This document shows, piece after piece, positions 17,120 through 19,422 of a DNA stretch of 64,000 bases (its first letter is position 1; each line of letters opens with the position of its first letter). The position numbers and the translations under genes were made by a program. The DNA lies in NCBI RefSeq assembly GCF_058153355.1, contig NZ_CM177019.1; one strand, written 5' to 3'. The notes beneath the pieces were generated by a model. It did not search any database. It was not told the DNA's origin and saw only the letters and a program-made list of their open reading frames with translations.

Positions 17120-17300
17120 ACGAAAGCCCGCTCTCCTGCGACCACTTTTATCATAGGAGTGTGGAAGCGCTTTTCCATCAATTGCGATGACGTCTTTATC
17201 ATTTGATGAATGGCAATCTCGCATCCAGTTAATAAAGCATTCGTGAAATTATACTGAACGGATACAAGACATAACTCTAATTATGGTGCCGTGAACAGGA
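17120..17300 (-). mobile_element. ISAs1-family (H-repeat) transposase fragment; positional equivalent of the K-12 yafF remnant
   Basis: Translation ...[29 protein letters not shown]... matches the conserved core of H-repeat-associated proteins; about 150 bp are also similar to 19060-19240. Confidence 0.5.
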
Positions 17301-17348
17301 TTACCATTTTCAAAATTACGATATTATTTGCAGTAATTATGTTATTAA

Positions 17349-17861
17349 TCATTGTGATATTTCCATCTCTGTGATTAATACCGGATAAGCATTTAATTGC
17401 AGAGTTTGCACGAAATTATCGCAGATAACTGGCAATAACAATAACCCATCAGCCCGCTGCTGTAATACCTCCATTCGTTCTACTGATTCAACATTAACAA
17501 CCAAACCAAGGGCATTTAGCGATTTAAGGATCTCCAGATGTTCACTCATCCAGCGCAGAGAAAAAGGATCATCACCAATTATAAAAACAGGCCCCCAGCC
17601 GGTTAATAACTGGCGTTTCATTACGGAACCAGGATGAAGTCGAGTACATATTACAGGAAATACCCCCTGTTGCGATGGTTCCAATGATGTGGATAATTCA
17701 GAAATATTTTCCATTGTTAGTGAAGAATTAACATCCATTAATAATGGTGAAACAACCTCACTTTCCTTGCTAGTAATGGCTGCACTAATCTGAGAGGAAA
17801 ATAACAATATTATTACGTATAAACTCATTTTTAACATAACAAATTCAATCCGTTTATTCAT
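17349..17861 (-). CDS. Hypothetical exported/membrane-anchored protein (N-terminal hydrophobic segment)
   Basis: 170 aa, AT-rich, no recognisable domain; lies where K-12 carries yafU, between the H-repeat remnants. Confidence 0.35.
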   Translation of the reverse strand: MNKRIEFVMLKMSLYVIILLFSSQISAAITSKESEVVSPLLMDVNSSLTMENISELSTSLEPSQQGVFPVICTRLHPGSVMKRQLLTGWGPVFIIGDDPFSLRWMSEHLEILKSLNALGLVVNVESVERMEVLQQRADGLLLLPVICDNFVQTLQLNAYPVLITEMEISQ

Positions 17862-17927
17862 GTTATAGAATAATGATGCTATAAATCATCATTAATGTTC
17901 AATTATTTAATCACACAGTTTAAAAAA

Positions 17928-18431
17928 TCATTGACCAATGTGAATTGGCAATGTACCACTCAAGTTAAAATCACTGAATATTTTATCAATTTCTCTTGCA
18001 GTTTCTATATATTTAACCTCTTTCGTACTTGCATTATAAATAGCCCAAGCCTCGGGATGGGATGTTCCACCAAACCTTACAAAAAAACTTGATTTCATAT
18101 TATTATATAAATTAACATCAGGAAAAGGATCTTCTCCAAAATTAGTAGTATTGAATAATGAAAGTTCGTATCGCTTAGAAAATTCTGTTGGTAGGATAGC
18201 TTCACTGCCATCAATAGCATTCATCCAGAGTTTGTTACCATTATATTCCAACAATAATCTCTGTTTTGCATGTGTCTTATCTCGTTCTTTAACGACAGCG
18301 AATACCTTTTTAACAACTTGCTGTGCGGATGGTCCTATTGTATTACCAAAAGCTGGCAACCCGATTTTGCCATAAACACTCTCCTGAATAAAATAAATAT
18401 CCGTTTTATCGGCCTCGACAATATCTACCAT
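17928..18431 (-). CDS. Hypothetical cytoplasmic protein
   Basis: 167 aa, AT-rich, no recognisable motif; lies where K-12 carries ykfM. Confidence 0.35.
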   Translation of the reverse strand: MVDIVEADKTDIYFIQESVYGKIGLPAFGNTIGPSAQQVVKKVFAVVKERDKTHAKQRLLLEYNGNKLWMNAIDGSEAILPTEFSKRYELSLFNTTNFGEDPFPDVNLYNNMKSSFFVRFGGTSHPEAWAIYNASTKEVKYIETAREIDKIFSDFNLSGTLPIHIGQ

Positions 18432-18600
18432 TTATCCCTCCAAACAAGACCTGACTCCAGGACAAGAGCATAGTGTGTAGTAAACACTTCATGCTCTTGC
18501 CCTGACCATTGAAATAACAACTTTCGTTTGTTTACTGTACGCTGTCTAAATAGCTGCGTGGAATAAAGTTGCACTTTTTATCATCCCTTGCAGAGCAAGA

Positions 18601-19422
18601 TTACGAAAACCCGTCTCCGCAAGGACTGACGCGAGGTAGTCTCTGTCCGTAGCTGCTTTCACATCTTACATCTTGCCCCTGCCTTGAGTATCTTATCTTT
18701 CTTTGAAATATTAATAGCGATGTTCCGTATCCCTGAAATAATTCTGCTGCATTTCCTCTTCTTATTTTGAAGTCGTCTTTATTCATTACCACGTCCAGAT
18801 GCTAGTGCAATTTATTCTCCACTTGCCAGTGATTTCGGTTCGCTGTGGCGAACTTCTCTGCGGTTAAATCAGCAGAAATGCTAAAATATCTGACCGTCAT
18901 TTCGGGATTTTTCTTTTGTTCTGCTATTATTGAGCGAAATGAGACTGCCATGCATAATTTCTTCAGCCCTTTCCATTCAAACGTAAAATCAATAAATTCA
19001 TCAGGGACATCGCAAATAATATGAAGACGGATTTTAATGACATAAATCGCTCCCTTGCGGCGACTCTTGTCATAAGAGTGCCGAAGCGTTTTTCCATCAA
19101 TTGCAATGACATCTTTATCATCTGAGGAATGGCAGTCACGCATCCAGTTAATAAAGCACTCATGAAATTTTGCAGGACTGATACAGGATACAACTCTGGC
19201 AATGATATCGTGAATAGGAATACCATTTTCAAAATCACCATATCACTTCAAAAAATCGGGATGTGTTTCCCCAAATCCTCTATATCTTCCCAGCCTTATG
19301 CACCAGAAATAACGGCGCAAATAGTTAACAGATAGAATATCTGGCAATTTATGCTCCACTTTCCAGGCTTGCCTGTAATCGGGGATAATAGAAATATGTT
19401 CCATCAATTTTTTAAGTTCCAT
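18601..19422 (-). pseudogene. ISAs1-family (H-repeat-associated) transposase, degenerate: internal deletion plus frame changes
   Basis: N-terminus [20 protein letters not shown]... (start at cat 19420-19422), core [26 protein letters not shown]-terminus VMNKDDFKIRRGNAAELF spread over three frames (ORFs 18963..19241, 18802..19143, 18601..18792). Confidence 0.6.

Follow-up and report, generated by a model that had tools for sequence, protein, structure and literature searches.

Which genes lie between the two remnants of the H-repeat, an insertion sequence (IS) of the ISAs1 family, that bracket a short AT-rich stretch beside yafV in Escherichia coli, and what part has recombination between such remnants played in the island to which they belong? 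The question concerns a window of 64,000 nucleotides (nt) of an E. coli chromosome (NCBI RefSeq assembly GCF_058153355.1, contig NZ_CM177019.1), in which the bracketed segment constitutes the yafV-proximal end of an aspV-linked type VI secretion system (T6SS) island, with the core gene yafV as the island boundary. The segment holds two co-oriented genes, one encoding a 167-amino-acid (aa) protein of an undescribed family and the other a putatively secreted DUF2859 (PFL_4695) protein, and we conclude that this pair is probably an uncharacterised T6SS-linked module. The reading that we favour, with the balance for and against it about even, is that the pair forms terminal T6SS cargo, in which the 167-aa protein would be effector-like, the DUF2859 protein would be its partner, and the H-repeats would be recombining borders of cargo modules. 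The segment is composed of the following features.

17110-17329, minus strand: left H-repeat remnant, the 3' terminus of the IS fused to an internal 201-nt piece
17110-17136, minus strand: 3' terminus of the yafV-adjacent H-repeat, identical at 27 of 27 positions to the start of the IS segment in strain 2013C-3181
17129-17329, minus strand: left direct repeat, a divergent 'left-type' ISAs1 piece, 82% identical to positions 771-971 of the full-length element
17349-17861, minus strand: DUF2859/PFL_4695 gene, a 170-aa open reading frame (ORF) whose likely RefSeq-style start at 17837 gives 162 aa
17928-18431, minus strand: gene of the 167-aa protein, with its own ATG; the product has no signal peptide and no Cys
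18458-18504: imperfect inverted repeat reported by the repeat finder, with 21-nt arms, 81% complementary, and a 5-nt loop
18597-19557, minus strand: right H-repeat pseudogene with both ends kept, including the right direct repeat at 19048-19248

The preliminary description of this DNA, made from its letters alone, had placed ISAs1 remnants in direct orientation around two AT-rich ORFs, an arrangement that is borne out by the alignment, by the ISAs1 matches and by a GC content of about 36%. With the full-length H-repeat beside yafV in strain 2013C-3181 as the ruler, the remnants turned out to be longer than first drawn (17110-17329 and 18597-19557, against 17120-17300 and 18601-19422), and their nucleotide identity to the full-length copy is 82-93% overall. 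The direct repeat had also been recognised, at a length of about 150 bp; pairwise alignment extends it to 201 nt (17129-17329 vs 19048-19248, in the same orientation) at 81% identity, with the repeat finder and MAFFT in agreement, 162 of the 201 positions identical and a longest perfect run of 20 nt. Both arms match a full-length ISAs1 of another E. coli (E 5e-49 for the left arm, 0.0 for the right), and their similarity is therefore due to homology, not chance.

The two copies have decayed differently. On the cassette side the left remnant is cut off, all sequence 5' of its internal piece being gone, and the terminus is joined to that piece at an 8-nt microhomology (CGCTCTCC), a junction that implies a 743-bp internal deletion in the left H-repeat. 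The right copy, 90-93% identical to that of 2013C-3181, has a 312-bp internal deletion at 19034/19035 together with frameshifts and stops. The degenerate transposase gene noticed earlier was recovered here: a 113-aa ORF fragment (18802-19143) matches NF033564, the ISAs1 transposase, with 75.3 bits against a cut-off of 70, and homologues of the right copy carry the RefSeq label 'ISAs1 family transposase, frameshifted; internal stop'. An intact transposase ORF, as a potentially mobile ISAs1 would have, is present in neither copy.

Between the remnants lies an insert of 1.27 kb with a GC content of 35.6%, whereas the window as a whole has 50.8% and yafV 54%; its two minus-strand genes stand at 34.5% (167-aa ORF) and 37.2% (170-aa ORF). 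A promoter and terminator scan of 17050-19650 returned nothing above the shuffled expectation. Homology searches with both ORFs led to an uncharacterised family and to DUF2859, with no housekeeping protein matched by either, and an N-terminal hydrophobic segment was found only in the 170-aa protein, in line with the initial view that one product is exported and the other is not.

The DUF2859 protein scores 120.8 bits with TIGR03765 (cut-off 59.75) and matches PF11072 at model positions 40-146 with an E value of 3.8e-28; the RefSeq product name of its homologue is 'integrating conjugative element protein'. Its single N-terminal hydrophobic segment is followed by SQISA-A, and we read this N-terminus as a putative Sec signal peptide. 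Two Cys residues are conserved, the N-terminal third is divergent, and close relatives were found only in Escherichia by a word-indexed search. The family is known as a conserved landmark of PAPI-1-type islands (PMC12629846). No other gene of a conjugative element was detected in the window or in the corresponding loci of strains 2017-02-2CC, ES5 and LF82. A single-sequence AlphaFold model of the protein reached a pLDDT of 42 and was not used for the fold search. In the literature on DUF2859, on PFL_4695, on yafV or aspV in connection with T6SS, and on H-rpt (the H-repeat) or ISAs1, nothing was found on this gene pair.

Upstream of the 167-aa gene, a GGAGGG Shine-Dalgarno sequence is located 6 nt from the ATG, and the protein has no hydrophobic N-terminus. 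It found no sequence match in Pfam, NCBIfam, PADLOC, PHROG or the PDB, and its 19 aligned relatives found none in Pfam or NCBIfam; PADLOC gave no significant match for the gene pair, four relatives and five of the partner proteins encoded beside relatives, and family and partner proteins likewise had none in PHROG. Among 1.84 billion cluster representatives, an exhaustive HMMER scan yielded only 31 relatives; the cluster of full-length 167-aa sequences counts 762 members. The named sources of the family include Serratia, Morganella, Rahnella, Yersinia, Pantoea, Citrobacter, Burkholderia and E. coli. Most members are stand-alone proteins of about 190 aa, and the family alignment has the motif G-x-D-P-x-P-x3-L-Y ... 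F ... GG ... P-x-A. The predicted structure of the family is a confident, beta-rich model without a relative among solved folds.

Other identities for this family were considered and rejected. The PDB profile match 8kea_A (E 0.06), a 'hub' chain with an unconvincing alignment, was dismissed as noise. A divergent Hcp was considered because hcp is the usual occupant of the slot held by one relative; no Hcp appeared among the fold matches, and another relative has a separate hcp upstream. Identity with Serratia Ssp4/Ssp6 was likewise discarded, Ssp4 being helical and encoded in the ilv cluster and hence belonging to a different family.

The genomic contexts of the family were taken from 12 exact-sequence look-ups, three of which ended on uninformative short contigs; they are a sample and not a systematic census. 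In a T6SS core cluster, one member occupies the position between tssC and tssE and precedes a series of genes for small exported or membrane proteins, another lies 16 nt downstream of an orphan hcp, and seven further loci are islands of two to three genes between housekeeping genes. At eight loci the next gene downstream encodes 135-157 aa and overlaps (often by 4 nt) or abuts the family member. The six partners that were translated are strongly hydrophobic, with two to four scored segments (up to four transmembrane), and in three pairs of partners a mutual similarity is detectable (E 1e-3 to 1e-7). E. coli has no such four-transmembrane gene, and in its place the DUF2859 gene stands 66-90 nt downstream of the 167-aa gene. 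The idea of a toxin and its immunity protein, put forward in the preliminary description, is thus reasonable as a reading of layout for the 167-aa gene, given the T6SS cluster, the hcp and the membrane partner; it does not extend so readily to the DUF2859 protein, which is not the usual partner of this family.

At the first of these loci, on the metagenome contig JGI 3300078837 (locus positions 6001-11062), the interval between tssC and tssE holds the family member, a four-transmembrane partner and about eight small genes, among them one for a 126-aa Cys/His amidase-like protein and several for exported proteins; the slot looks like a dense effector-immunity array. A two-piece, probably frameshifted family member was also seen on NZ_LN868946.1 (Salmonella Senftenberg 'plasmid 4', locus positions 9001-9457), between sseK1 and rpoC; the presence of rpoBC and the thi operon on this record makes it look like a chromosomal piece labelled as a plasmid.

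A second allele of the pair, found in 12 complete genomes, encodes a 167-aa-type protein (165 aa in this allele) 68% identical to that of the window and a DUF2859 protein 75% identical. In strain ES5 the pair is preceded, on the same strand, by genes for Hcp, VgrG, DUF6484, DUF2169, DUF4150, PAAR-like, WD40-like, HEAT-like and thioredoxin-like proteins, without an IS upstream of the pair; after it come a single, nearly full-length H-repeat, an 87-aa ORF and yafV. Since the ES5 pair is contiguous with vgrG cargo and has one H-repeat, the bracket of two IS copies belongs to the window-type allele alone. H-repeats had been said to accompany orphan toxin-immunity modules often; the pair is not such a module of the Rhs C-terminal type: the 167-aa protein is stand-alone, with a start codon and a Shine-Dalgarno sequence of its own, and the ES5 pair continues a vgrG/PAAR operon. 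A displaced Rhs C-terminal fragment was rejected as well, on the grounds that the 167-aa protein and its 19 relatives match no Pfam or NCBIfam family and that the relatives are stand-alone proteins of about 190 aa.

In the window, the imperfect inverted repeat at 18458-18504 lies in the interval that separates the right H-repeat from the 5' end of the 167-aa gene; position 18472, within this repeat, is where homology to the ES5-type allele sets in. The 87-aa ORF between H-repeat and yafV (12555-12818 of the GCA_910664955.1 locus, 19566-19829 of the ES5 locus) has no family match and no counterpart in the window.

Both ORFs are intact in the two E. coli alleles. Between the alleles the ratio of nonsynonymous to synonymous divergence (dN/dS) is 0.31 for the 167-aa gene (dS 0.58) and 0.36 for the DUF2859 gene (dS 0.39), with 0.10 for yafV. 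These ratios indicate moderate purifying selection on both genes, subsequent to the deletion of about 30 residues that distinguishes the E. coli branch of the family.

These properties can be combined in a model in which the gene pair would be terminal cargo of the T6SS island. The 167-aa protein would be an effector-like, presumably toxic, member of its undescribed family. Elsewhere, the small four-helix inner-membrane protein encoded directly downstream would neutralise the family member, which, to judge by the layout of a soluble protein followed by a small membrane protein, would act at the periplasmic side of the inner membrane or from there. In Escherichia, the secreted DUF2859 protein would have replaced the membrane partner, and it is the best candidate for a periplasmic partner or immunity protein. 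The H-repeats, finally, would provide portable homology at the borders of cargo modules, so that recombination between copies could swap or delete modules. A bolder version, which we hold to be possible but doubtful, is that the family comprises new T6SS-delivered antibacterial effectors of unsolved fold that act at the inner membrane or in the periplasm and normally have four-transmembrane immunity proteins, and that in Escherichia immunity was taken over by a periplasmic DUF2859 protein derived from conjugative elements; if true, it would offer an example of immunity-protein replacement and the first assigned function for DUF2859.

Several observations weigh against the cargo model. No catalytic motif was recognised. 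About 30 internal residues that are conserved in the family are missing from the E. coli branch, and so is the canonical membrane partner; DUF2859 is otherwise a family of conjugative elements without a known T6SS role. The link to T6SS consists of two non-E. coli loci and the E. coli island, most members residing in orphan operons remote from T6SS genes. In two strains, the only such cases, an insertion sequence interrupts the DUF2859 ORF while the 167-aa gene has stayed intact: IS1 in PT62, where the target duplication corresponds to window 17636-17644, and ISEc60 in FDAARGOS_944 (17656-17666). PT62 lacks the whole T6SS, and tssF is frameshifted in FDAARGOS_944; these defects weaken the split ORFs as counter-evidence, since both cases would also fit an immunity function that has become dispensable. 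The two insertions are independent events about 30 bp apart, in the 5' third of the ORF. In the window itself, the interval 49100-49450 measures 351 bp compared with 359 bp in relatives, an 8-bp deletion that frameshifts tssM, from which it follows that the T6SS of this strain is probably inactive; tssM is accordingly read as two ORFs at 46349-49868 (TIGR03348 positions 2-963 and 965-1168). As for the repeats, about 25 nt is the minimum usually quoted for efficient RecA recombination, and with a longest match of 20 nt the window repeats are a poor RecA substrate, between which further recombination should be rare.

Some of these points suit a different history, in which the pair would be left over from an old cargo module, the 167-aa gene being an inactive, internally deleted toxin relic and DUF2859 an unrelated passenger, both kept only by linkage to the island. 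For the E. coli branch a non-functional relic is a serious alternative, if on balance an unlikely one. The loss of the 30 conserved residues and of the membrane partner, the two independent IS insertions that break the DUF2859 ORF, the frameshifted T6SS genes of the window and of FDAARGOS_944, and the death of both flanking IS copies are what decay would leave behind; however, both ORFs are intact across lineages at a dS of 0.4-0.6 with a dN/dS of about 0.3, the reading frames have survived a 30-residue deletion that is older than the allele split, and the cluster of full-length 167-aa sequences has 762 members. The DUF2859 gene invites another explanation, namely that a fragment of a PFGI-1/ICEclc/PAPI-1-type element was trapped between H-repeats and that DUF2859 is a relic of its mating-pair apparatus. 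The TIGR03765 score of 120.8 bits, the PF11072 match (E 3.8e-28), the low GC content and the status of DUF2859 as a landmark of PAPI-1-type islands (PMC12629846) are consistent with it. Such an origin nevertheless appears improbable, given that neither the window nor the related loci contain another conjugative-element gene, that close relatives of the protein were found only in Escherichia (word-indexed search), that the neighbouring gene comes from a T6SS-linked family, and that the pair is contiguous with the vgrG operon in ES5.

The operons of a soluble and a four-transmembrane protein, conserved as small islands between housekeeping genes, also have a layout like that of RexA/RexB. An abortive-infection or defence module of this kind would pair a soluble sensor of about 190 aa with a membrane-depolarising four-transmembrane effector, the E. 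coli pair being a variant of it; we consider this decidedly improbable, since PADLOC and PHROG returned no match for the family or its partners, two family members lie in or beside T6SS genes, and the E. coli partner is not a membrane protein. Two IS copies of the same family, directly oriented around passenger genes, finally recall a composite transposon that mobilises the cassette as a unit. The condition of the copies makes this barely credible: neither transposase is intact, the right copy is deleted and interrupted by stops, and the left one is a 0.2-kb scar without its 5' end, so that the H-repeats cannot act in this way; moreover, the cassette occupies one chromosomal site with no plasmid copy found, and the ES5-type allele has a single H-repeat.

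The cargo model assigns the H-repeats a role as recombining borders, and their history can be followed from the yafV side. Where the yafV flank meets the IS terminus (…GGGGTAAGACTACGAAAGCCCGCTCTCC…), the sequence is near-identical in the window, K-12, 2017-02-2CC, AR_0369, EC42405 and 2013C-3181, the differences being 1-3 substitutions or a 1-nt indel just before the IS terminus. This near identity across strains points to one ancestral insertion.

K-12, which lacks the entire cassette locus, matches the window only to 17133 and is then colinear with the 3' ~295 nt of the full-length H-repeat. This segment is the yafF pseudogene, 93% identical to the 2013C-3181 copy and 88% to the right copy of the window. 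From yafF the K-12 sequence jumps to yafU, with a breakpoint equivalent to window position ~18877 and thus outside 19048-19248. The direct repeats had been proposed as a likely substrate for the deletion seen in K-12; the position of the breakpoint excludes the 201-nt repeats from that role, and K-12 lost the island via a different breakpoint.

The general idea that the repeats are recombination substrates is, by contrast, borne out in other strains, AR_0369 and about 250 more, which have a hybrid H-repeat. AR_0369 has a single H-repeat beside yafV and shares the microhomology junction of the window; at 31 informative sites, the first 10 are left-type (17134-17203) and the remaining 21 canonical (17216-17327), which places one clean crossover between 17204 and 17215. 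A hybrid with a single crossover inside the 201-nt repeat indicates that these repeats have served as a recombination substrate. The hybrid junction was found in about 209 records at at least 99% identity and in 44 more at 95-99%; a broad query with the predicted recombinant returned 2167 genomes at at least 80% coverage, a figure that mixes hybrids with full-length yafV-adjacent H-repeats because pieces are joined across gaps, and the narrower query gives about 250. Upstream of the AR_0369 hybrid lie Rhs dsORFs like those of 2013C-3181, and the recombination partner was thus an Rhs-linked H-repeat; the intervening DNA, possibly including this cassette, would have been deleted when the hybrid formed. 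In EC42405 only 67 nt of the left fragment are kept, followed by a complete ISEc1.

In LF82 (NC_011993.1), a third ISAs1 remnant lies at 16738-17415 of the locus, between two VgrG/PAAR cargo modules, which suggests that H-repeat remnants routinely mark module borders in the T6SS island. An IS architecture of this sort is ordinary for E. coli T6SS/Rhs islands.

Beyond the cassette, the window contains the following genes and elements of the island and its core flank.

13115-15637: fadE, followed in the window by ivy and yafV
15680-16153: ivy, between fadE and yafV
16298-17077, plus strand: yafV (2-oxoglutaramate amidase), from the ORF list and the RefSeq annotation of strain 2017-02-2CC and K-12
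19553-23505, minus strand: group II intron, with domains D5-D6 at 19553-19628 and D1-D4 at 23388-23505 (Rfam RF00029 and RF01999, above gathering thresholds)
19684-21105, minus strand: reverse-transcriptase ORF of the group II intron, from the ORF list
21154-21954 and 21951-23123: istB and istA of an IS21 element inside the intron, from the ORF list
28682-30718: VgrG
30935-31453: Hcp
up to ~51.7 kb: T6SS core genes tssB to tssM and tssA

Strain 2017-02-2CC, 98.8% identical to the window over 17050-19560, has the order yafV, ISAs1 fragment, 'integrating conjugative element protein', hypothetical protein and ISAs1 pseudogene, continued by Tle1, DUF3304, DUF4123, VgrG, Hcp, the T6SS core and tRNA-Asp. 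The layout of fadE-ivy-yafV, cassette, Tle1/VgrG/Hcp/T6SS core and aspV is common to 2017-02-2CC, LF82 and the window itself. Of 5426 complete E. coli genomes, 540 contain the cassette in full, with no more than one or two matches each; the chromosomal site is the same throughout, and no plasmid copy was found. The number of genomes found with the tssM allele is close to this: 550 genomes carry the tssM allele of the window.

In the window, the group II intron and its IS21 stand between the right H-repeat and the vgrG cargo genes, the 3' end of the intron abutting the 5' end of the H-repeat. Downstream of VgrG, an AT-rich block of vgrG cargo (23564-28660) contains genes for a 433-aa protein that carries an M23 peptidase domain and for a 341-aa protein in which a lysozyme/chitinase-like signal is faintly discernible. 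It also encodes small proteins whose N-termini resemble signal peptides and which may be immunity proteins; no protein of this block had an NCBIfam match.

The locus offers a clean, datable example of H-repeats as recombination borders for E. coli T6SS cargo modules, and it corrects the assumption that the loss of the island from K-12 used the 201-nt repeats. It also draws attention to a small unannotated protein family with an effector-immunity-like layout in several genera, and to a DUF2859 protein outside any conjugative element.

Among known systems, the closest to the borders is the H-repeat of Rhs elements (H-rpt; ISAs1, for example ISEc1; in K-12 yhhI, ydcC, ybfD and the pseudogene yafF), with which the remnants are homologous at 82-93% nucleotide identity. 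The classic position of the H-repeat, downstream of Rhs/VgrG cargo, is shared, 2013C-3181 and EC42405 have a full copy between yafV and Rhs dsORFs, and in K-12 the 3' end of an H-repeat, yafF, adjoins the yafV flank through the identical junction. The window copies differ in being dead fragments, of which the left is of a divergent type and joined by microhomology to its own terminus, and in having no adjoining Rhs core.

For the genes themselves, Serratia Ssp4/Sip4, a T6SS effector neutralised by a four-transmembrane inner-membrane immunity protein (PMC12669606), is comparable in layout only: a small stand-alone gene is followed by one for a four-transmembrane protein of about 150 aa, either as an orphan or in T6SS clusters, and the fold has no solved relative. 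Ssp4 is helical, whereas the 167-aa family is beta-rich, with neither sequence nor fold similarity between them, and the E. coli pair has a secreted DUF2859 protein instead of the membrane partner. The DUF2859 protein passes the curated TIGR03765 cut-off and matches PF11072 as do the PFL_4695/DUF2859 proteins of PFGI-1/PAPI-1-type elements, but it represents a clade confined to Escherichia, is encoded at the end of a T6SS island and has no conjugative-element neighbours. Finally, E. coli T6SS-1 has the Tle1-Tli1-Tla1 and PAAR-like/DUF2169 VgrG modules, which in sister strains are found immediately upstream of the right H-repeat, on the strand of the gene pair; they are made up of distinct gene families, and in the window-type allele the H-repeat stands between them and the pair.

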